From contig JABLXD010000007.1 in assembly GCA_013178285.1 (NCBI GenBank), positions 18,093 through 82,092 on the forward strand: DNA of 64,000 bases. The letters are read 5' to 3'. The notes beneath the pieces were generated by a model that saw nothing but the letters and a program-made list of their open reading frames with translations, did not search any database and was not told the origin of the DNA. The translations under genes were made by a program, and so were the position numbers. The stretch is from Methanofastidiosum sp. GTDB taxonomy: Archaea > Methanobacteriota_B > Thermococci > Methanofastidiosales > Methanofastidiosaceae. Positions 16,021-59,807 of this stretch are shown here, in pieces (the stretch's first letter is position 1; every line of letters begins with the position of its first letter).

Positions 16021-16464
16021 TTATTCTGAGTATAATCCTTCTTTTTTATTATATACTTCTATTATGTTGCCATCTGGATCATAAAAATAGAAGAATCTCT
16101 TGCCATTTATTTTTGGATGGGGGTGTGTAAGCGTTACTGGCTCTGAAACTGTTTCTATGCAATTATTTACAAATTTTTGGTGAAGTGCATCAACATCCTC
16201 AACTTCAAAAGCTATGTGGTTAAATATTGAAGGACTTTCCATGAGGCCATTTTTGAATTCTACTAGCTCGATATTTACTTTGGATTTTTTATCAGATAAT
16301 ACTGCAAATACAACGTCAAAGTCATTTAGACCCGTTACTTTTTCGAACTGTTCACCGTTAATTGGATGTTCAAAGACTGCCTCTAATCCTAGTGTTTCTT
16401 TATAGAATCTTTTTGATGTTTCAAGATTTGAAACAAGTAAGGCTATGTGATTTAAAATTGCCAT
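16021..16464 (-). CDS. VOC family protein (glyoxalase/bleomycin-resistance/dioxygenase fold)
   Basis: The 147 aa protein has the N-terminus LNHIALLVSNLETSKRFYKETLGLE, typical of glyoxalase I-like proteins. Confidence 0.7.
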   Translation of the reverse strand: MAILNHIALLVSNLETSKRFYKETLGLEAVFEHPINGEQFEKVTGLNDFDVVFAVLSDKKSKVNIELVEFKNGLMESPSIFNHIAFEVEDVDALHQKFVNNCIETVSEPVTLTHPHPKINGKRFFYFYDPDGNIIEVYNKKEGLYSE

Positions 16465-16505: not shown

Positions 16506-16661
16506 ATTACTTTATAATTTTACTAATGTTATAACCGGTTTTAATATAACCTGAAAGAAGGGAGTTTCCATTATATTACAACCTTTATATTGGATAAACT
16601 TCTTTCCCTATTTTCCCTAATTTTTTCCATATCCTTAAATATATGGAAAAGATGAAATTAA
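16506..16661 (+). repeat. Intergenic module A, copy 1 (156 bp), promoter-like, with hairpin and TATA-embedded palindrome
   Basis: This copy is near-identical to 56501-56656 (same length, no indels; differences are concentrated in 16550-16570). It contains TTTATAAT, the stem TAATATAA/TTATATTA, and TTCCATAT-N8-ATATGGAA overlapping TTAAATATAT. Confidence 0.85.
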
Positions 16662-16690
16662 TCAAATTGAATTTAAGTAAGAGAGATTAA

Positions 16691-17068
16691 ATGACATTAG
16701 ACAATAACTTAATTGTTGTATTTTTATTACTTAGCTTAGTCGAACTCTTAACTTTTTTTTCTATTTTAAATAGTCTAAGATATCGTAAATATGGCAAATT
16801 GATTCGAATTGATGCGAATATTCCAGAAACTCATTATACTGGAAATGGTGTTCTAGCCTACCTAATTCTAATCTTTATGTTTGTTAATCTCTTTGCTATA
16901 TTTCTTTTGAAATTTTGGGGTTTCGTATTTTCAGTTCTATGGATAACCTTTAGCAGTATTTTCCTCTACTGGTACTGGCACACCAAGGAAGATCCTCTAA
17001 ATCGTTTCCACTACGAGCAGAAGGTCTGGGAGGATCCAAGGGACAAGAAGAAAAAGGAGACCAACTAA
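16691..17068 (+). CDS. Hypothetical small membrane protein (125 aa, three predicted TM helices)
   Basis: The ORF has hydrophobic segments and a Lys-rich C-terminus. Its stop overlaps the start of the next ORF (TAAATG). Confidence 0.5.
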   Translation: MTLDNNLIVVFLLLSLVELLTFFSILNSLRYRKYGKLIRIDANIPETHYTGNGVLAYLILIFMFVNLFAIFLLKFWGFVFSVLWITFSSIFLYWYWHTKEDPLNRFHYEQKVWEDPRDKKKKETN

Positions 17069-17752
17069 ATGACATCCGACTTCAAACCCGGCAAAGCATA
17101 CCTGATAGAAGGCAAGGGCATAGAACAGGTGAAGAGTGAGATCAAGGATTGGCTTACTGAAAAAGGGATAGAAGTAAAAGAAGAAGATGAAAATTCACTT
17201 ATAGCGTATAATTATTTTTATAGTTTCAAGATTAGCCAGATATGGATTAGTCTAAAATTGGAAAATCACATTTCTGAAACTGTTATCACTTTTGATGAAA
17301 GAGTATATAGGTTTCAGATGTGGTTGATTGTTGGGGGCCAGTACTATTACCTCGACGAAATAAGAAAAGATATGGTAAGGTATCTCAAAGGAAAAGATGA
17401 AATTGGCATCAATACAATTGGCAGATATTGCGCTTTATCATACTTGCCCATGTTGCCTGCCTTAATATTTTGGGGCGTTCCATTCTTTTCGGGAATGTTT
17501 TCCATCGTGCTTGAAGAGAGTATCTGGAATTTATTTATGAAATTATTTCTAATTTTTATCTTAATTGGTAATTTATGCTCTATGTATCTAGAATTTGTCC
17601 CTCTTAGAAAAAAATTAGACGCTCTTGCAAATTCATATGAACACTATATTGAAAAATATTCGGGAGAAGAGTATAAGGTGGACATATTTCCACTTATTGG
17701 ATATTTTTTTATCTGTCTAATATTCTTCTTTTTTATAATTTACCACATATAA
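17069..17752 (+). CDS. Hypothetical membrane protein (227 aa; about 110 aa soluble N-domain followed by TM helices)
   Basis: It is translationally coupled to the upstream ORF, and the pair is bracketed by repeat modules A1 and B1. Confidence 0.5.
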   Translation: MTSDFKPGKAYLIEGKGIEQVKSEIKDWLTEKGIEVKEEDENSLIAYNYFYSFKISQIWISLKLENHISETVITFDERVYRFQMWLIVGGQYYYLDEIRKDMVRYLKGKDEIGINTIGRYCALSYLPMLPALIFWGVPFFSGMFSIVLEESIWNLFMKLFLIFILIGNLCSMYLEFVPLRKKLDALANSYEHYIEKYSGEEYKVDIFPLIGYFFICLIFFFFIIYHI

Positions 17753-17760
17753 GACGAAAT

Positions 17761-17797
17761 TATAGTTTATTAAGTTAAACTTTATAATTTTACTAAT
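17761..17797 (+). repeat. Intergenic module B, copy 1 (TATAGTTTATTAAGTTAAACTTTATAATTTTACTAAT)
   Basis: This copy shares the 22-mer ACTTTATAATTTTACTAAT with module A and matches 58062-58100 almost exactly. It is followed by the hairpin ATTACAgggcttTGTAAT. Confidence 0.7.
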
Positions 17798-17890
17798 ATT
17801 ACAGGGCTTTGTAATATAATGAAGAATTCAATGAACTGTTTTATCTAAGAAAGGAATTAGTATATAAAAATAAATAAAATAAAATTTATT

Positions 17891-18790
17891 TTATGGAACA
17901 ACTAGTTGTATCCTTATTGTGTCAAATGTTCCATTTGTAGAGTAAGCTACCATAGAGATATTATAAGTTCCTGATGGAACGTTTGTACCTACTGTGAATG
18001 TTGCGCTGTATGTACCTATATTATGTGCCTTTATTGTCTGTGTAGCTGGAGTTAATTCTACTGTGACTCCATCTGGGAGCCCAATGAATCTTACTCTTGC
18101 ATCCTTTTGTGTAAAGAATCCTCTGTTCTCAACTTGTATCATTGTCTGCTGTACACCAGGCAAAACATTGAAAGCTGAGATGATTTTACCATCCTTTATT
18201 ATGGTTGCGCCACCGCTAACTGCAAATCCTTCAATGTCGACTTTTGGGTATAAAGCCTGCTTTCCTTTACATTCACAGATTGAGTAAAGTTTCCAGGAAT
18301 AGGTAATAGGACAATCTGAATTCTCGCTGTTTACAACTTGAATACTTTCAAATTCTTTTATTACACTTCCTTGTATAAATTCATTCTCACTAAAAGGAAA
18401 CCTAATATCCACACCATCTACAACTCCGCACTCTGGGTCAAATTGAGGTGAGCTAATCCCGTGTTCTTCTCCTTTATAGTAAGCTGTAATCCAAAAAATT
18501 GCTAGAGGGGGGTCTCCTGTACATTCTATGCATTCTTGTGTTTGCCCTTTTATTTGGAGATAGTAATAACAATCTTCAAGAATAAAAGAAGGTACACTAT
18601 ATGATCTGTTTTCGCCAGGTTGAAGAGTTGTGTTAAATGACCAAACTAGTTTTTCATTATAGCACTCAAAAGGCACCCCTTCAACAAACATATCGTCCAT
18701 TGGATTCTGACCAAGTACTGTTGAAAGGCTACTAATCGCCAATAAAAATATACCAATTAAAGCAATGATTCCTTTTTTCATGTTTACCAC
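17891..18790 (-). CDS. Hypothetical secreted/anchored Cys-rich protein with a C-terminal Ig-like (CARDB-like) domain
   Basis: It has an N-terminal signal/TM segment (MKKGIIALIGIFLLAISSLSTVLGQ) and 9 Cys. The C-terminus has a beta-sandwich-like pattern. Confidence 0.45.
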   Translation of the reverse strand: MVNMKKGIIALIGIFLLAISSLSTVLGQNPMDDMFVEGVPFECYNEKLVWSFNTTLQPGENRSYSVPSFILEDCYYYLQIKGQTQECIECTGDPPLAIFWITAYYKGEEHGISSPQFDPECGVVDGVDIRFPFSENEFIQGSVIKEFESIQVVNSENSDCPITYSWKLYSICECKGKQALYPKVDIEGFAVSGGATIIKDGKIISAFNVLPGVQQTMIQVENRGFFTQKDARVRFIGLPDGVTVELTPATQTIKAHNIGTYSATFTVGTNVPSGTYNISMVAYSTNGTFDTIRIQLVVP

Positions 18791-18887
18791 CTTTAATATT
18801 CATTTAAATGAAATCTTAATATTATATAAAAGTTTTGGATTTTACCGAGGGATTATTTGAAAGGGCCAATTTAAATATCCATTTATA

Positions 18888-18930
18888 TTTTATTAAGTTA
18901 AATTGAACTATTTTACTAAAATTACAAGCC
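18888..18930 (+). repeat. Intergenic module B-like, copy 3 (degenerate)
   Basis: TTTATTAAGTTAAAttgaacTATTTTACTAAaATTACAAGCC combines the B core with the ATTACAAGCC segment seen in module A2. Confidence 0.4.
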
Positions 18931-20018
18931 TAGTATTTATCAGGCCTCATTTTTTTGATAAGCTTTATTTTTTTAGAAATGTCTTTGCCTCTAACTTTCT
19001 CTGTAACCCTGCCCATCTCATTCTGTTTTATAGTAAGATATTCTATTTCTTTTTTCAGTTTAAGATAATGCTCATACCGACGTGCTTCAAGATCACCGTT
19101 TTCAATAGCATTCTTCACAGCACAGCCTGGTTCACTAATATGGGTACAATCTGAAAATCTACAGTTATTTGAAAGTGCTTCTATATCAGAAAAGACATCA
19201 CTAACATCGTCACCATCAGACCATAATTGAAGTTCTCTCATCCCAGGATTATCAATAATCATCCCTCCATTTGGAAGCATAATCATCTCTCTAAAAGTCG
19301 TAGTATGTCTCCCATGGCTATCAGATTTTCTTACAGAACTAACTTTTTGACGGTTTGTGCCAAGTAGTTTATTAATAATAGTTGATTTGCCTACGCCAGA
19401 AGATCCGAGAAGAGCTATAGTCTTTCCTTTTTCAAGATATTGTTCAATTGACTCCAATCCTTCATTTAACTCTGCACTCAAATTATGTATTGGAACATTT
19501 GGGGCTATTTTTTTCACTTCTTCTAACTTTTGATCGAGGTCATTGCAAATATCAGATTTATTTAGTACAATAACTGGCCTTGCGCCACTCTTTGAAACTA
19601 AAGTAAGGTATCTTTCAATCCTCTGGATATTAAAATCATGATCAAGTCCTGATACAATCAAAACCACATCAACATTTGCAAGTAAGACCTGTTCTTCTGT
19701 AAGTTTACCTGCAATTTTTCTAGAGAATTTGCTCTTTCTAGGTAGAACTTCATGAATAGTTCCCTTGTTATTAATCTCAATCTTTATGATCACCCAATCT
19801 CCAACTACGGGGAAATTACTTTTGTCCAGTGTATTAAATCTAAATTTACCAGAAACTCTAGATTCTACCTCGCCTAGTTCTGTAATCACCATGAAGCTTT
19901 TACGTTGGACTTCAGTGATACGGCCAGGTATCAATCCTTCTTCTTTAAATTCGGTAAAATTATCCTCAAAGTAGGAATCCCAGCCGATAGTTTCAAGATC
20001 AATTGATGAATTTTCCAT
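18930..20018 (-). CDS. rsgA: Ribosome small-subunit-dependent GTPase A (circularly permuted GTPase RsgA/YjeQ)
   Basis: Motif order is G4 (NKSD) then G1 (GSSGVGKST) then G3 (DNPG), with an N-terminal OB-fold region and the C-terminal zinc knuckle CRFSDCTHISEPGCAV, which is RsgA-specific. Confidence 0.85.
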   Translation of the reverse strand: MENSSIDLETIGWDSYFEDNFTEFKEEGLIPGRITEVQRKSFMVITELGEVESRVSGKFRFNTLDKSNFPVVGDWVIIKIEINNKGTIHEVLPRKSKFSRKIAGKLTEEQVLLANVDVVLIVSGLDHDFNIQRIERYLTLVSKSGARPVIVLNKSDICNDLDQKLEEVKKIAPNVPIHNLSAELNEGLESIEQYLEKGKTIALLGSSGVGKSTIINKLLGTNRQKVSSVRKSDSHGRHTTTFREMIMLPNGGMIIDNPGMRELQLWSDGDDVSDVFSDIEALSNNCRFSDCTHISEPGCAVKNAIENGDLEARRYEHYLKLKKEIEYLTIKQNEMGRVTEKVRGKDISKKIKLIKKMRPDKY

Positions 20019-54705: not shown

Positions 54706-56376
54706 CTAGTAACCTGAATCCTGCCTCTCTGTTGTCTCAAAAGTCGTTTGATCCTTCTTCATAGTTTCAGATATTTTTATTGTTTCCTTTCTAATTTCTT
54801 CTAGCTCTGAGAAAATCATTTTTTCTTTTATTTTTTCTGGAGGTCCAATTTCTACTATGTTTCCTTCAAGTAAGAAACAAGACCTGTCACAGGCATCGAC
54901 AACAAAGTCCGAGTCATGAGTTATTATAATGAAAGTTTGGTCTAAATATTCCCTTGATTTTCTTATTGCATTTGCAATTTCTTTTGTCCCCCTTGGCTCA
55001 TCAAGAATAACAAGATTTGGTTCCTTTATCAAAATCTGTGCCAAAGCAACTGTATGCCGCTCACCTTCAGAAAGCGATTCAGGTGTTTTATGGATAATTT
55101 CTTCGATTTTATTTTTATTAAATCCTACTGCCTCTAGGACATCAGATACTTTTTTTGTTGCTATTTCTATGGGGAGCTTTAATCCAATTGACTCAGTTAA
55201 ATTGTCAAAAACAGTTTTATTTTGGTAGAGAGAGTATTCCTGGTGCAAAATTCCTATATAGGGTGCTGCCCTTATTCTACCTGAAGAGCCATCTTCTTTC
55301 ATATTTATCCATTCATCACCAATTCTAAGTTTAAATTCTCCTTCTTTAAAAGGAATTAACCCCCCTATAATCTTAGAAACGGTAGTTTTCCCAGCCCCAC
55401 TCTTACCTACAATACCAAAGATCTCTTTCTCATTGACGGTAAGGGAGAAATTATCAACGGCTTTAATTACTCCCCTTGATATAGAATAAAAGTATTTTTT
55501 TACATTGACTAGGGATATCATCTCTTTTCCAGTTTCTGTAAAAATCAATTTATAATCGTCTGTGGGATTTATATCTTCTACGATTAGATTGGACGAATCT
55601 AATTCTTCAGTTATCTTTCCTTTGTCAAGAACTAATGCCCTCTCAGTGACTTTGCTAATTATAGAAGATTTTTGAGATGCAACTACTAGACTTTTACTAT
55701 CATTCTTAAAAATGCTAATTAATGTCTTTTCAATAATATCTGAAGTAACAGGATCAAGAGTTTCTGTTGGCTCATCAGCAAACAATACTATTGGATCTAA
55801 TGCGAGTTGCCTAGCTAAAACAAGTCTTTGCTTCTCTCCCCCAGAGAGGTCTCTTGCAACATGAGTCATCCTATGTATCAAGTTAACTTTCTGAAGAATT
55901 TCAATTATTCTAGAATTGATTTCTTTTTCTGGTAATTGCATGTCTACGAATACTTCGTACATGTTTTCAATTACAGATCTCTGCCCGAAAAGTGCAAATG
56001 TTCTCTGAAACATTATCGCCGTTCTTCTCTTCAGCATATTGAAAAATTCAGCGTCTTTCCAAAAATTTATTTTTTTGGGAACGTATTCAGAATTACATTT
56101 AAGGCATTTATTTCCTGCATAGCTTGGGAGATTGATATGTTTACATTTTGGACAATATGAAACAAAGTAGTATACATTTCCCTTTGAAGGGGCGTAACCC
56201 TTTGTACCCCTTAAGATATTGAGTAAAACTGATTTTCCGCTACCTGTAGGGCCATATAACCCTAAGGAATCTCCTTCTTTAATTGAAAAAGAAATATTAT
56301 CCAATATTACTACGTCGTCAACAATAAATGAAAGATTTTCAACTTGAATTAGATTGTGCTTCATTTTAATCCCCAA
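54706..56376 (-). CDS. ABC-type ATPase with two tandem nucleotide-binding domains and a zinc-ribbon insertion in NBD1 (AtwA/EcfA-fusion-like)
   Basis: NBD1 has GPTGSGKS, LSGGEKQRLVLARQL and ADEPTETLD. NBD2 has GKSGAGKT, LSEGERHTVALAQIL and ILDEP. It has the insertion CPKCKHINLPSYAGNKCLKC. Confidence 0.75.
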   Translation of the reverse strand: MGIKMKHNLIQVENLSFIVDDVVILDNISFSIKEGDSLGLYGPTGSGKSVLLNILRGTKGYAPSKGNVYYFVSYCPKCKHINLPSYAGNKCLKCNSEYVPKKINFWKDAEFFNMLKRRTAIMFQRTFALFGQRSVIENMYEVFVDMQLPEKEINSRIIEILQKVNLIHRMTHVARDLSGGEKQRLVLARQLALDPIVLFADEPTETLDPVTSDIIEKTLISIFKNDSKSLVVASQKSSIISKVTERALVLDKGKITEELDSSNLIVEDINPTDDYKLIFTETGKEMISLVNVKKYFYSISRGVIKAVDNFSLTVNEKEIFGIVGKSGAGKTTVSKIIGGLIPFKEGEFKLRIGDEWINMKEDGSSGRIRAAPYIGILHQEYSLYQNKTVFDNLTESIGLKLPIEIATKKVSDVLEAVGFNKNKIEEIIHKTPESLSEGERHTVALAQILIKEPNLVILDEPRGTKEIANAIRKSREYLDQTFIIITHDSDFVVDACDRSCFLLEGNIVEIGPPEKIKEKMIFSELEEIRKETIKISETMKKDQTTFETTERQDSGY

Positions 56377-56500: not shown

Positions 56501-56656
56501 ATTACTTTATAATTTTACTAATGTTATAACCGGTTGTAATATAATCCAAAACTAGCAAACTTGTCTTATATTACAAGCCTTATATTGGATAAACTTCTTT
56601 CCCTATTTTCCCTAATTTTTTCCATATCCTTAAATATATGGAAACGATGAAATTAA
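56501..56656 (+). repeat. Intergenic module A, copy 2 (156 bp)
   Basis: It has the same length as copy 1 and is collinear with it. It is identical except for a few flank substitutions and the 21 nt hairpin loop (56545-56565). Confidence 0.85.
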
Positions 56657-58066
56657 ATGAATAGAATGCGAACTGAAGCCGATTTATCGCGCCCACCATT
56701 AATAATATTGATATCCCTAGTACTGGGAATTATCTTAACTGGAATTACAAAGACATACTATGGGCAACCTAAATCCATGAATATTATTTACATTTCAATA
56801 TTGCTTTATATTTTAATCATCGTAACTATTGCCTTGGCTTTATACAAAGGGCTAATAACAGAGATGAGGCACAATATATTTTCAAGGAAGAAAGCATTTG
56901 TCAATGATGAAGAAGAGCCTGAGGATAGTATATATCTAGAAAATATGGAGGGCGGTAAGGATTGCTGTCCTTATTGTAATAAAGAAATATTTGACTACTG
57001 GGATATCTGTCTTTATTGTGGGAATAGTTTGAAGTATAAGAGCAGGTTCAGATTTCTAAACACTAGAAATTTATTTTCAGCAAATAAAGCATCAAGCGAT
57101 TACGAAGAAGATCCTGAAGATAGCATAGATTCAGACGATATGGATGATGATAAGGATTACTGCCCCTACTGTAATGAGGAAATATATGGCAGTTGGGACA
57201 TTTGTCTGCATTGTGGAAAAAATCTAGAATTAAAGAAAGGCATAATTTACAAATTCAAGAATCCCATTTCTATTTTATCTATACTCCTGATAGCTTTTAT
57301 GATAATATGGGCCATAACACTATCCTTTGCTCCAAATGCTGAAGAATATACTATGGAAGGAAATTCATTATACAATCAAGGAAAATACGACGAGGCTCTA
57401 GAGAAGTTTGATAAGGCTTTAGAGATAAATCCTAATTTTGCTTATGCATGGGAAGGCAAGGGTCTTGTACTTCATAATAAAGGAAAATACGACGAGGCTA
57501 TTGAATGTTATGATAGAGCTATTGCCATAAATCCTAATTTTGCTCAGGTTTGGTATAACAAAGGACTTGCATTTGAAGAGCAGAGTAATTATATTAAATC
57601 TATAGAATGCTATGATAAGGCAATTTCAATAGATTTAAACTATATTTACGCGTGGGAAGGAAAGGGAATAGTATTTTATATACAAGGTAATTATCCCCTA
57701 GCGATCGAATGCTATGATAAGGCAATTGCCATAAATCCAAACTATGCATCCGCATGGGTTAACAAAGGGGCTGCTTTTTTAATACAAGGAAAATACGATG
57801 AAGCTATTGAATGCTTTGACAAAGCGATTGTTATAGATCCTAATTTTGCTTATGCTTGGTGTAACAAGGGACTTATACTTGGAGCTCAAGGCAAATACGA
57901 TGAAGCTATTAAATACTATGATAGAGCTATTTTAATCAATCCAAATTTTGCTTTTGCATGGTATAACAAAGGACTTGCACTTAAAAAACAAGGTTTGTAT
58001 TTTGAATCCATTATATGTTTTCAAAAGGCAAAAGAACTTGGTTACAAAGAATCGGCCAATCTATAG
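56657..58066 (+). CDS. Membrane protein with two tandem zinc-ribbon/acidic modules and about 7 C-terminal TPR repeats
   Basis: It has an N-terminal TM helix, then the duplicated module EEEPEDSIY..CCPYCNKEIFDYWDICLYCGNSL and EEDPEDSID..YCPYCNEEIYGSWDICLHCGKNL, a second TM helix, and repeated 34-aa units (W-GKG--L---G-Y-EAIECYDKAI-INPN-A-AW). Confidence 0.65.
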   Translation: MNRMRTEADLSRPPLIILISLVLGIILTGITKTYYGQPKSMNIIYISILLYILIIVTIALALYKGLITEMRHNIFSRKKAFVNDEEEPEDSIYLENMEGGKDCCPYCNKEIFDYWDICLYCGNSLKYKSRFRFLNTRNLFSANKASSDYEEDPEDSIDSDDMDDDKDYCPYCNEEIYGSWDICLHCGKNLELKKGIIYKFKNPISILSILLIAFMIIWAITLSFAPNAEEYTMEGNSLYNQGKYDEALEKFDKALEINPNFAYAWEGKGLVLHNKGKYDEAIECYDRAIAINPNFAQVWYNKGLAFEEQSNYIKSIECYDKAISIDLNYIYAWEGKGIVFYIQGNYPLAIECYDKAIAINPNYASAWVNKGAAFLIQGKYDEAIECFDKAIVIDPNFAYAWCNKGLILGAQGKYDEAIKYYDRAILINPNFAFAWYNKGLALKKQGLYFESIICFQKAKELGYKESANL

Positions 58067-58100
58067 TTTATTAAGTTAAACTTAATAATTTTACTAAGTT
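58062..58100 (+). repeat. Intergenic module B, copy 2
   Basis: TATAGTTTATTAAGTTAAACTTAATAATTTTACTAAGTT overlaps the TAG stop of the TPR gene and matches 17761-17797. Confidence 0.7.
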
Positions 58101-58226
58101 TATTATCCTAGCATAATTTTTTATCTAATTAAGGAAATTATACTAAGACTAATCCAGACCCTATACCCAAAAATTAATCAGTATTTAGATAGATTTTAAA
58201 TATATCTTAAACCTCTTTTATTATAG

Positions 58227-59807
58227 TTGAGGGATTTTGTGATATCTAAATCGGGTAAGGACTTTGACATAATATTAATTACGGCAGAGTATTACGACGA
58301 TCACCCATTATCTCCTTCAGGAGTTATCTCAAGAGTCCTAGAAAGTAAAGGTTACAAAATCGGGATTATAGAAAAACCCTTAACAAAAGAAGATTACCTG
58401 AAACTTGGAACGCCAAAATTATTCTTTGCTGTTACGTCTGGATCTATAGATAGCATGCTCCATAACTATACGCCATTAAAAAAAAAGAGATCAGAAGACC
58501 CGCACTCTAACTTATCTTTGATGCCTGATAGGGCTTTGATAGTATACTGTAACAAGATTAGAGAATACTTCAAGTCGGCAGTGATTGTTATAGGTGGAAT
58601 AGAAGCTTCAATGAGGAGATTTGCCCATTATGATTACTGGAACAATGATATCAGAAGGAGCATTATCTTTGATACTCGAGCAAACATTTTAGTATATGGA
58701 AATGGAGAAAAACAAATTCTTGAAATAGCAGAAAGATCAAGAAAAGGCATCGAACTTAAAGGAATTCCAGGGACATGCATCATAAGTAAAACTTTGGATG
58801 AAGGATTCGAACTGCTTCCTTCGTTTGAAGAAGTAAAAGAAGATCCACTAAAATTTTGTGAAATGCAGAAACTACTTTCAAATAAGAAGAATTTAGCCCA
58901 GTTCTACGATAATAACTATCTCCTTCAATACTCTTATCCAGAATACACAACAGAAGACCTAGATTGGATATACTCACTACCATATTCAAGGAGACTTCAT
59001 CCTAATTCTCTTTTAAAGATGGCAAAATTTTCAGTTGTTACTCATAGAGGTTGTATAGGTAATTGTAATTTTTGCTCACTTAAACTCCACCAAGGAGATA
59101 AAATAGTTTCAAGGAGTGAACGTTCAATCTTAAAAGAAATAGAATCACTAACATCTCATCCAGATTTTAAAGGATATATAGATGATCTTGGTGGGCCTTC
59201 TGCAAATATGTATGGGATGGATTGTGCAGATAAATGCAATCAAGAATGCATTAACTGTAATAAACTAGACAAAAGCCATATGAAATTAATCTCGCTTTTA
59301 AAAAAAGCTAGGGCGATTAAAGGTGTTAAGAAAATATTTGTCAGAAGTGGCATAAGATATGACCTTGCAATAGAAAGTAAGGAATACATCAAAGAACTAT
59401 CAGAGCACCACATATCTGGCTGTCTTAAAATAGCGCCTGAACATTTTTCTGAAAAAGTTTTGACACTTATGAATAAGGATAATTCGAGATTTGATGAATT
59501 TGTTTCTTTCTTTGATAGTATTAACAAAGATAAAAAACAGTATCTTAAGTATTATCTAATGATTTGCCACCCAGGCGATGATGAGAAAGAAATAATGAAA
59601 TTAAAGGAAAAAATAAGTTACCTGTCAAACATTGAAAGGTTTCAAGTTTTTACACCGACGCCCATGACAAATTCCACATGTGTCTATTGGACTGGGATAG
59701 ATCCAAATAGCATGAAAAGAGTTAACGTCATACATGACTACAAAACAAAAAAGAAATTAAAACGCATAATACTACAAGAAATTGATAACAAAAAATCTCG
59801 TAGTTAA
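58227..59807 (+). CDS. YgiQ/UPF0313-family radical SAM protein
   Basis: It has the radical SAM triad CIGNCNFC (C-x3-C-x2-C) and an N-terminal B12-binding-like/Rossmann domain. It starts at TTG. Confidence 0.75.
   Translation: MRDFVISKSGKDFDIILITAEYYDDHPLSPSGVISRVLESKGYKIGIIEKPLTKEDYLKLGTPKLFFAVTSGSIDSMLHNYTPLKKKRSEDPHSNLSLMPDRALIVYCNKIREYFKSAVIVIGGIEASMRRFAHYDYWNNDIRRSIIFDTRANILVYGNGEKQILEIAERSRKGIELKGIPGTCIISKTLDEGFELLPSFEEVKEDPLKFCEMQKLLSNKKNLAQFYDNNYLLQYSYPEYTTEDLDWIYSLPYSRRLHPNSLLKMAKFSVVTHRGCIGNCNFCSLKLHQGDKIVSRSERSILKEIESLTSHPDFKGYIDDLGGPSANMYGMDCADKCNQECINCNKLDKSHMKLISLLKKARAIKGVKKIFVRSGIRYDLAIESKEYIKELSEHHISGCLKIAPEHFSEKVLTLMNKDNSRFDEFVSFFDSINKDKKQYLKYYLMICHPGDDEKEIMKLKEKISYLSNIERFQVFTPTPMTNSTCVYWTGIDPNSMKRVNVIHDYKTKKKLKRIILQEIDNKKSRS

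Follow-up and report, generated by a model that had tools for sequence, protein, structure and literature searches.

We analyzed a 64,000-nt stretch of the genome of a Methanofastidiosum sp. (assembly GCA_013178285.1, contig JABLXD010000007.1, positions 18,093 to 82,092; hereafter the window), in which an inverted repeat with a 21-nt centre occurs in two copies, within the segments 16506–16661 (W1) and 56501–56656 (W2). We found that this repeat is the first element of a cassette-side arm, lying 1 nt past the right arm of a 29-bp core site at which chromosomal flank gives way to small gene cassettes, and that the arms of the repeat are conserved among copies whereas its centre is not. The reading that we favor, and in which we place about even confidence, is that the apparent hairpin acts at the DNA level, as an inverted repeat made of two conserved half-sites in an arm serving cassette integration, the centre doing no more than to keep them at a constant distance. 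The original prediction, made from the letters alone, had taken the variable loop for a specificity determinant or for the product of targeted diversification, neither of which proposals is supported by the data; the variation most likely reflects an absence of sequence constraint and not an encoded address, and the cassette system is in our view of more interest than the loop.

The W1 and W2 segments align without gaps, and each contains the inverted repeat with the arms TAATATAA and TTATATTACAA, so that conserved arms around a diverged 21-nt centre are indeed present in both. A repeat search lengthened the W1 arms to 13 nt (GGTTTTAATATAA and TTATATTACAACC, 92% complementary and 21 nt apart), and returned TTGTAATATAA and TTATATTACAA, also 21 nt apart, as the arms of W2. 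The loops, CCTGAAAGAAGGGAGTTTCCA in W1 and TCCAAAACTAGCAAACTTGTC in W2, are free of indels and show 12 differences in 21 positions (57%), which value agrees with the divergence of roughly 60% originally given, though not with the accompanying count of 14 substitutions, which was two too many. The near identity of the flanks was likewise confirmed: outside the loop only 3 of 115 aligned positions differ, the flanks thus being about 97% identical.

In W1 (coordinates being those of the window, on the plus strand unless otherwise indicated) the 5' arm TTTTAATATAA occupies positions 16539–16549 and carries a single G-to-T change that introduces a T.C mismatch into the stem; the loop follows at 16550–16570 and the 3' arm TTATATTACAA at 16571–16581. 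Downstream lies a conserved pyrimidine-rich tail (16582–16626), which begins with a third TTATATT motif (TTATATTGGATAAAC) and closes in T-runs (CCCTATTTTCCCTAATTTTTT), and then a TATA-box-like element, CCATATCCTTAAATATATGG (16627–16646), which is a candidate promoter of the cassette genes. The same order is found in W2, where the inverted repeat spans 56534–56576 (loop, 56545–56565) and the tail, T-runs, and TATA-like element span 56577–56641, with the cassette's open reading frame (ORF) beginning at 56657. The TATA-like box CCTTAAATATATGG sits some 20–50 nt before the cargo ORF; in the copies designated L004 and L018a (see below) the TATA-like core of the CCATATCCTTAAATATATGG element is retained, and its small hairpin is not. 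An extra palindrome, ATGTTATAACCGG / CCGGTTGTAATAT, centred on CCGG, bridges the core's right arm and the hairpin's 5' arm in both window copies (16526–16547 and 56521–56542); therein, GTTATAAC is its own reverse complement.

Further copies were collected by scanning species-representative genomes and metagenomes, once each, for the pattern of the repeat, together with look-ups of contigs via neighbouring proteins. The resulting set comprises seven distinct full copies from at least four genomes: W1, W2, and five that derive from other Methanofastidiosum assemblies, namely L004 (GCA_023622545.1, a metagenome-assembled genome, MAG, of Methanobacteriota), L012 (a 'Thermococci' MAG), L018a and L018b (both in a JGI contig), and L024 (a strain whose AtwA protein is 99% identical to that of the window); the ENA contig L023 is an identical duplicate of an L018 copy and was not counted separately. 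All seven have a loop of exactly 21 nt and the identical 3' arm, and the only change in the 5' arm is the pair-breaking one of W1. Since the same arms at the same spacing recur in the five further copies, the repeat does not stem from chance. The genome scan gave two archaeal matches plus 14 unrelated bacterial ones, 12 of these in Streptococcus, and the metagenome scan matched one contig; four scans of viral contigs (IMG/VR) found no copy of the module, nor did BLAST searches against plasmids (PLSDB) and a phage collection return a match to it. The Streptococcus oralis-group matches (L002, L005, L007, L008, L010, L011, and L013–L017), present at one locus per genome in about a dozen genomes, are probably an unrelated conserved AT-rich inverted repeat. 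In several samples, moreover, short-read (Logan) contigs end in or beside the module or the core site (L001, positions 1–72; L019, both ends; L029–L032, first 175 nt), and L001 and L019, which come from the very sample behind the window's MAG, terminate within the module, as expected for a repeat; such ends are consistent with a multi-copy repeat that breaks assembly, so that the copy number in MAGs is probably underestimated.

Six of the seven loops are clearly homologous (W2; L024, CCAAAAACTTGTAAACTTGTC; L012, CATAAAACTAGCAAACTTGCC; L018b, TCCAAAACTAGCAGATTTCTC; L004, TCCAGAACGAGTACACTTGCC; L018a, TCCCAAACAAGTAAAATTGTC), with the consensus TCCAAAACTAGyAAACTTGyC and five invariant positions, instead of being unique to each copy as had been expected, and the W1 loop is the outlier, with 10–13 of 21 differences from the remaining six. 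The mean pairwise difference among copies is 6.6% in the core site, 48% in the 6-nt spacer 5' of the stem, 2.6% in the 5' arm, 35% in the loop, 0% in the 3' arm, 62% in the 3-nt spacer 3' of the stem, 3.7% in the tail, and 15% in the TATA-like box. This profile agrees with the idea of a structured, repeated element with a variable centre (35% versus 0–2.6% in the arms and 3.7% in the tail), but not with that of a localized hypervariation, because the short spacers flanking the stem vary as much as the loop or more and the latter is therefore not uniquely variable. Between the orthologues W2 and L024, whose sequences are 99.1% identical on the atwA side, 4 of 21 loop positions differ (T/C, C/A, A/T, and C/T), against 2 of 115 in the flanks and 11 of 202 (5.4%) fourfold-degenerate sites of atwA, for which excess of the loop rate over the synonymous rate a binomial estimate gives p of about 0.02 in this one comparison. 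The arms and tail are thus constrained by purifying selection, and substitutions in the loop accumulate at the neutral rate or somewhat faster. The dilemma originally posed—that a recent duplication should have left the loops identical and an old one should have let the flanks drift—is mostly resolved if the spacer is near-neutral and its surroundings are purified, which resolution does not cover the extra divergence of W1.

The core at which the cassettes begin is a palindromic site of the form 11-7-11, with 11-nt inverted arms around the centre TTACTAA, which centre is invariant in 18 of 18 aligned sites, the arms being degenerate. The 10-nt sequence ATTTTACTAA occurs five times in the window versus 0.85 expected, always on the plus strand (16517, 17787, 18910, 56512, and 58088), and every occurrence marks an edge or a junction of one of two islands. 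Island A (16527–18909) lies between a glyoxalase gene (16021–16464, minus strand) and rsgA (18930–20018, minus strand); island B (56522 to about 58097) lies between atwA (54706–56376, minus strand) and a gene for a YgiQ-type radical SAM protein (58227–59807). The left edge of island A is an attL-type core site at 16509–16537, composed of the left arm ACTTTATAATT, TTACTAA at 16520–16526, and the right arm TGTTATAACCG, and that of island B is the core ACTTTATAATT-TTACTAA-TGTTATAACCG at 56504–56532. Within island A, an internal junction at 17762–17807 joins an upstream arm, U (ATAGTTTATTAAGTTAAAC), to the core ACTTTATAATT-TTACTAA-TATTACAGGGC. The right edges are of the attR type and have no hairpin: that of island A (18885–18930) combines a U-like arm with the core ATTGAACTATT-TTACTAA-AATTACAAGCC and overlaps the last base of the rsgA stop codon (18930–18932, minus strand), while that of island B (58063–58108) combines the U arm, which here contains the stop codon of a tetratricopeptide-repeat (TPR) gene, with the core ACTTAATAATT-TTACTAA-GTTTATTATCC.

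Related loci in which an island is missing contain a single core site. In L033 (GCA_020854815.1) and L034–L036, whose glyoxalase is 95% identical, rsgA and the glyoxalase gene are adjacent, and their 72-nt spacer holds one site, GCTTAATGATT-TTACTAA-AATTATTAATC. When L033 was compared with the window by BLAST, the two flank alignments overlapped in the query by exactly the 10 nt of ATTTTACTAA, within which sequence the alignment switches at the left edge; the overlap defines a 2383-bp insert in the window at 16527–18909. Likewise, L026 and L027/L028 (AtwA 81% identical) have a lone core site where atwA borders directly on the radical SAM gene. The arms are self-complementary at 8–9 of 11 positions at two of the three empty sites, and at 5 of 11 at L027, and the repeat search finds the same palindrome. 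A single, different cassette occupies the island A site in L037 (GCA_964500005.1), and L004 and L012 use additional chromosomal loci, for a total of at least four or five target loci.

The arms are distributed by a simple rule. Left edges (W1, W2, L024, L012, and the first sites of L004 and L037) consist of chromosomal flank, core, a cassette-type right arm beginning TGTTAT, and then TTGTAATATAA; right edges (the two in the window, the second site of L037, and the third of L004) consist of the upstream arm ATAGTTTATTAAGTTAAAC, core, and chromosomal flank, with the hairpin absent; and internal junctions (the second site of L004, L018a, L018b, and the window's 17762–17890) have both arms. In all five islands (window A and B, L004, L037, and L024) the left edge has the cassette-type arm without a full U, of which L037 retains part, and the right edge has U without the hairpin. 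This pattern is predicted for a two-armed, attP-like site recombining with a bare attB core to yield attL and attR, with tandem stacking of the elements; and exchange at the overlap would consistently relate the empty, left, right, and element-type sites in the five islands and three empty sites.

A second class of cassette arm, type B, is found at 17808–17890 of the window, where TTGTAATATAA (17809–17819) has no inverted partner 21 nt away, and related arms occur in L004 (4686–4800) and L037 (9943–9860). These arms have a second copy of TTGTAATATAA in direct orientation some 40–45 nt downstream, which is perfect in L004 but degraded in both the window and L037; each of the three cassettes encodes its cargo on the other strand. 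A motif that is used singly, inverted, or direct resembles a protein-binding site more than it does half of a stem. As a separate observation, the window retains 3' of the right-edge core of island B (58098–58222) about 40 nt beginning GCATAATTTTTTATCTAATTA, which sequence in L024 (4300–4375) precedes an acetyltransferase cassette and which looks like the remnant of a lost cassette.

From these comparisons we propose the following scheme. The two 11-bp half-sites TTGTAATATAA and TTATATTACAA, exactly 21 bp apart (32 bp centre to centre, or about three helical turns), would belong to a conserved arm of some 150 bp at the left end of small cassettes devoid of an integrase; the recombination site would be the 29-bp TTACTAA core just upstream of the repeat, W1 and W2 representing the attL-type left junctions of the two islands; and the recombinase would act in trans. 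The arms, the tail, and the promoter-like box would be conserved as sequences read by proteins, perhaps including RNA polymerase, while the 21 bp between the arms would need to keep only their length and could therefore drift at or above the neutral rate. In W1 the spacer would, in addition, have been largely overwritten by sequence complementary to the adjacent tail. The stem itself fits protein recognition: 10 of its 13 pairs are invariant among the seven copies and one pair is changed on both sides, a covariation score that was reached by 134 of 500 shuffles and that speaks neither for nor against a paired structure. The predicted covariation of the stems was thus not seen in this set, and arms conserved in sequence without compensatory changes fit protein-binding sites and not a stem maintained by pairing alone. 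The module recalls in this respect the operators built from two half-sites, with which it shares invariant half-sites, a spacer fixed in length and free in sequence, and a position just upstream of a TATA-like box, although an association with cassette edges is not an ordinary feature of operators and no regulator was identified.

Several points weigh against that scheme. The window ORFs checked and the retrieved loci annotated with Pfam yielded neither a recombinase nor a transposase gene, in a survey that covered only part of the ORFs and loci. A spacer of 21 bp is incompatible with catalysis of the dif type, so that the resemblance of the arms to dif, described below, may be coincidental. 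An att-like pattern could also arise through homologous recombination among short repeats, and with seven copies the tests of covariation and rate are low in power. Finally, the plus-strand TATA-like box at a suitable distance, the T-runs after the tail, and extension pairs compatible with G.T would also suit a short transcript, and the complementarity between the W1 loop and its tail reads more naturally as a feature of an RNA.

The module could accordingly encode a short structured RNA, be it a leader or a small RNA some 90 nt long, whose promoter would be the TATA-like box of the core site and which would start at the foot of the hairpin and end at the T-runs, with a structural stem and a loop either free or involved in target recognition; we regard this explanation, the main rival of the favored one, as possible, though rather unlikely. 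The sequence CTTTATAAT is present about 23–30 nt upstream of the stem foot in W1, W2, L024, and L012, T5–T7 runs follow the tail ahead of a second TATA-like box, and the L018a copy faces a convergent gene, which arrangement implies that the module can stand alone. All five plus-strand folds computed had z values of about -2, four of them (W2, L024, L004, and L018a) adopting the hairpin and W1 not. Furthermore, the stem foot of five of the seven copies (all but W1 and L012) contains an additional base, possibly bulged, past which a 2–4 bp extension of the stem is kept in part through G.T pairs, workable only in plus-strand RNA as G.U, and through one G-C to C-G exchange. Yet the stem gives no covariation signal and its sole arm substitution breaks a pair, and Rfam 15 yielded no match at the gathering threshold in the whole window and nothing credible for the module at E values up to 10, the best sub-threshold match being rli22 (26 bits, versus a threshold of 80). 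At the internal junctions the TATA-like box is degenerate (CTGAATGAT and CTTAATGAT) and a better one lies 20 nt further upstream, so that the 5' end would not be fixed. In addition, no complementary target of the loop was found in the window or in its own cassette, and the type B arms, which retain one half-site without its partner, are better suited to a binding motif. Among specific kinds of RNA, box C/D and H/ACA RNAs were rejected because their boxes are missing, by eye, from most copies. A minus-strand ORF of 16–19 aa, MEKIRENRERSLSNIKVVI, which runs from the TATA-like box into the 3' arm (window 16582–16646, as well as W2, L012, and L004), is in frame in four copies, even across a 9-nt deletion in L004; its frameshift in L018a and its variable codons, which change at all three positions, led us to reject a small protein, and the ORF is probably not coding.

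The W1 loop bears directly on this choice. The minimum-energy RNA fold of W1 is not the hairpin but a structure in which the loop pairs with its own tail (14 + 4 bp, -18.9 kcal/mol), the loop–tail duplex having -14.6 kcal/mol, an energy that 0.3% of the shuffled loops attained, as did 23 among 5000 21-mers drawn at random from the window (p of about 0.003–0.005 per loop, uncorrected for the seven loops tested). The repeat search found within that complementarity the exact 8-mer pair GAAAGAAG / CTTCTTTC. As the loop (16550–16570) is complementary to 16591–16606, it is also complementary to the conserved tails of all the other modules. The flanks of W1 and W2 are as similar as those of strain-level orthologues, inclusive of the otherwise variable AACCGG spacer; flanks so recently related combined with 12 loop differences in 21 call for an extra event. 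Either an inverted copy templated on the tail replaced the W1 spacer, or the pairing was selected, and we do not decide between the two. A local inversion or conversion tract had been named beforehand as an outcome that would count against a specific role of the loop: a simple inversion can be discarded, since the reverse complement of the W1 loop does not match the other loops, whereas the complementarity to the tail is suggestive of a local templated patch.

The searchable literature held no account of such a cassette system that we could find, and the system, for which the evidence is the comparison of a handful of loci, seems not to have been described before. An ambitious extension of the favored reading would see here a new archaeal system of cassette capture, in which small, promoter-bearing cassettes lacking an integrase enter several 29-bp sites by means of a trans-acting recombinase (perhaps the chromosomal XerA, or a relative of it, brought in by the dif-arm-like repeat), the 21-nt centre serving as a cassette tag or as the loop of a regulatory RNA; we advance it as a speculation that is probably wrong in this full form. 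Should the comparative pattern stand for genuine site-specific recombination, this uncultured lineage of methyl-reducing methanogens would assemble the genes in which its strains differ from small cassettes that drive their own expression, enter at defined intergenic sites, and carry no integrase, and would provide an archaeal counterpart, different in site architecture, to the cassettes of integrons or the dif modules of Acinetobacter. The 29-bp target and the arm of about 150 bp might later also become a tool for gene insertion in archaea.

An 11-7-11 arrangement with an asymmetric centre is the core geometry of tyrosine-recombinase sites, such as those of lambda, Cre, and Xer. For that geometry we rely on a published review (PMC8371274), which covers archaeal elements integrated in tandem and deprived of their integrase. 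The sites of the window are like lambda-type att sites in their inverted arms around a 7-bp centre identical in every partner, and in forming four classes (empty, left, right, and internal) with the arms of the element split between junctions, and, as in the integrase-less arrays, the elements stand in tandem at one locus. They differ in that the elements are of only some 1.3–2.7 kb and have no integrase, in that the targets are intergenic palindromes and not tRNA genes and number at least four or five on the chromosome, and in that recombination is here deduced from the comparison of sequences.

With integron cassettes the present ones share a small size, the lack of a recombinase gene, an arrayed disposition in one orientation, and an imperfect inverted repeat with a variable centre in each cassette, as in attC. 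Integrons, together with clusters of attC sites lacking integrase (CALINs), have been reported from archaea (PMC9668308). The cargo is in the present case also accessory and mostly of unassigned function. The consensus of attC has an inverse core box, RYYYAAC, at the 5' end and a core box, GTTRRRY, at the 3' end. Neither box is fitted by our 5' arm, (G)TTGTAATATAA, or our 3' arm, TTATATTACAA(C/G), the arm that contains GTT being on the wrong side; the switch from flank to cassette takes place in ATTTTACTAA, 12–20 nt upstream of the repeat, and not at the G|TT of an R' box; and the loop is 21 nt in all seven copies, whereas attC sites vary in length and loop (57–141 nt). As to IntI and attI, an integrase domain was found neither in those window ORFs that were scanned or that synteny tables covered, nor in the retrieved loci tabulated with Pfam, the rest of the genome not having been searched. 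Differences extend to the position of the repeat, at the promoter-proximal end of cassettes that apparently bring their own promoter, and to the use of several chromosomal sites as opposed to a single attI platform beside intI. On the grounds of the core boxes, the crossover position, the loop-length variation, and the adjacent IntI, we rejected the module as an integron.

Methanofastidiosales belong to the class Thermococci (GTDB). The arms of the repeat, which face inward as those of dif do, agree with the Thermococcus kodakarensis dif arms at 9 of 11 and 10 of 11 positions. The dif site of that species is TTTTGATATAATGTACCTTATATGACAA, of the form TTTTGATATAA-TGTACC-TTATATGACAA (PMC11840125), and belongs to the archaeal XerA/dif system (PMC2958812; PMC11840125). 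The spacer in dif is, however, of 6 bp (6–8 bp) and not of 21 bp as in every copy here, and no version of the repeat with a 6-bp spacer exists in the window at up to three mismatches; dif is a single terminus site, in contrast to a multi-copy module that occurs twice in the window, at a distance of 40 kb, and again at other loci; and the flanking core sites are direct repeats without resemblance to dif. The spacer and the copy number led us to reject the module as a dif site. The bounding of accessory modules by short recombinase-type sites and their reshuffling between strains are nevertheless reminiscent of the Xer-dependent dif modules of Acinetobacter plasmids (PMC6449649; PMC13141974).

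That the repeat might be a single-stranded DNA recombination substrate, like attC of integrons or the attP(+) of the CTX phage, in which the stem mimics a duplex site and the loop is a variable terminal structure, we consider improbable. Its constant association with cassettes, always beside junctions, the likeness of its arms to Xer/dif half-sites, its variable centre, and the possibly bulged stem-foot base would all accord with that explanation; but the apparent crossover is at TTACTAA, outside the hairpin, and the stem of 11–13 bp is too short for two recombinase-binding boxes, quite apart from the missing attC boxes, the loop of constant length, and the absence of an IntI-like gene from the ORFs and loci surveyed. 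The hairpin is, moreover, weak as single-stranded DNA (-5.9 and -7.5 kcal/mol). The original suggestion of a recombination core thus retains its link to an apparent site-specific recombination, whereas the apparent crossover is not in the loop but about 20 nt upstream.

Still more doubtful is an explanation without site-specific recombination, according to which the core and module would be the promoter or operator of a regulon, and the islands would result from ordinary indels or from homologous recombination between repeats. The core is palindromic, as an operator would be, the cores of empty sites are intergenic and promoter-proximal, beside glyoxalase, atwA/radical-SAM, and PaaK-like genes, and a recombinase was not found. 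This explanation would leave unaccounted for, however, that the five window occurrences of ATTTTACTAA are all at island edges, that the rule of left-only, right-only, or both arms holds in five of five islands, and that the L033 alignments overlap by precisely the 10-nt core; and at the empty glyoxalase/rsgA site the gene ahead of the motif is convergent, with its 3' end facing it, so that the motif has nothing to drive.

Least probable of all is an actively diversified or positively selected loop, be it as antisense seed, as cassette address, or through targeted hypermutation, in support of which one may cite the single W2–L024 rate comparison and the 12 differences of the W1 loop between orthologue-like flanks, and against which stand the homology of six loops, the variability of the spacers outside the stem, and the following results. 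Neither window loop had a match with up to six mismatches on either strand in the rest of the 64 kb, and no loop matched or paired with its own cassette better than with others, which failure to find a complementary or identical target speaks against an antisense seed or specificity loop. Targeted diversification of the kind produced by diversity-generating retroelements fares no better, for a reverse transcriptase was not found among those window ORFs that were scanned or that synteny tables covered, a template repeat is lacking, and the substitutions show no bias toward adenine.

Three other candidates for the core and module were discarded. A miniature inverted-repeat transposable element or an insertion sequence does not fit, in that the ends (TGTTAT... 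and ...AAACTTTATAA) are not inverted repeats and the apparent duplication is always ATTTTACTAA. Ends of the IS200/IS605 type, raised by the TTAC located about 15 nt before the hairpin, are less likely in view of the similarity on both sides of the core and the palindromic empty site. A generic promoter motif was set aside because ATTTTACTAA is found in the window at island edges only.

Regarding the cassettes themselves, no integrase gene was seen in them, and they occur singly or in tandem at conserved intergenic sites. The first cassette of island A encodes two membrane proteins of 125 and 227 aa (16691–17752), to which no function was assigned and which have homologous pairs in other cassettes (L024, L019, and L018); the second encodes on the minus strand a 299-aa secreted-looking protein with no family match (17891–18790). 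The cassette of island B encodes a 469-aa membrane protein that combines a double zinc ribbon with TPR repeats (56657–58066), which is absent from this position in L024, L026, and L027; within its ORF, five 102-nt tandem units (57377–58031), 64–74% identical, are ordinary 34-residue TPR repeats. Searches of the cargo proteins with NCBIfam and PADLOC gave no recombinase and no defence match. At the island A site, the L037 cassette encodes a beta-propeller repeat protein, while at the island B site L024 has the module with a cargo entirely different from that of the window; a homologue of the first L024 cassette, with 92.6% identity in the initial 600 nt and with these same repeats at its boundaries, is located elsewhere in the sample of the window's MAG (L019). 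In L018 (4434–4487, minus strand) only the T-rich tail and CCATATCCTTAAATATATGG are present, with neither core nor hairpin, upstream of an orthologue of the 125-aa cassette gene, which finding indicates that the tail-plus-promoter part can persist independently.

The window as a whole has a G+C content of 33.5%, and its archaeal core genes include those for AtwA (component A2 of methyl-coenzyme M reductase) and an F420-dependent oxidoreductase; proteins identical to those it encodes are annotated in a Candidatus Methanofastidiosum sp. MAG. A look-up with an AtwA paralogue (P0038) gave ten loci (about 160 kb in total) that represent one largely redundant mcr-operon region, in which the module was absent. 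In that region (L041–L050, from an L004-like species), which has neither the module nor a TTACTAA core, strains vary in ParA-like and 83-aa genes between mcrB and a chromate transporter, and a PadR gene beside mcrA is present or absent according to the strain; such presence and absence of genes where there is neither module nor core indicates that other routes of gene gain and loss also operate in these archaea.

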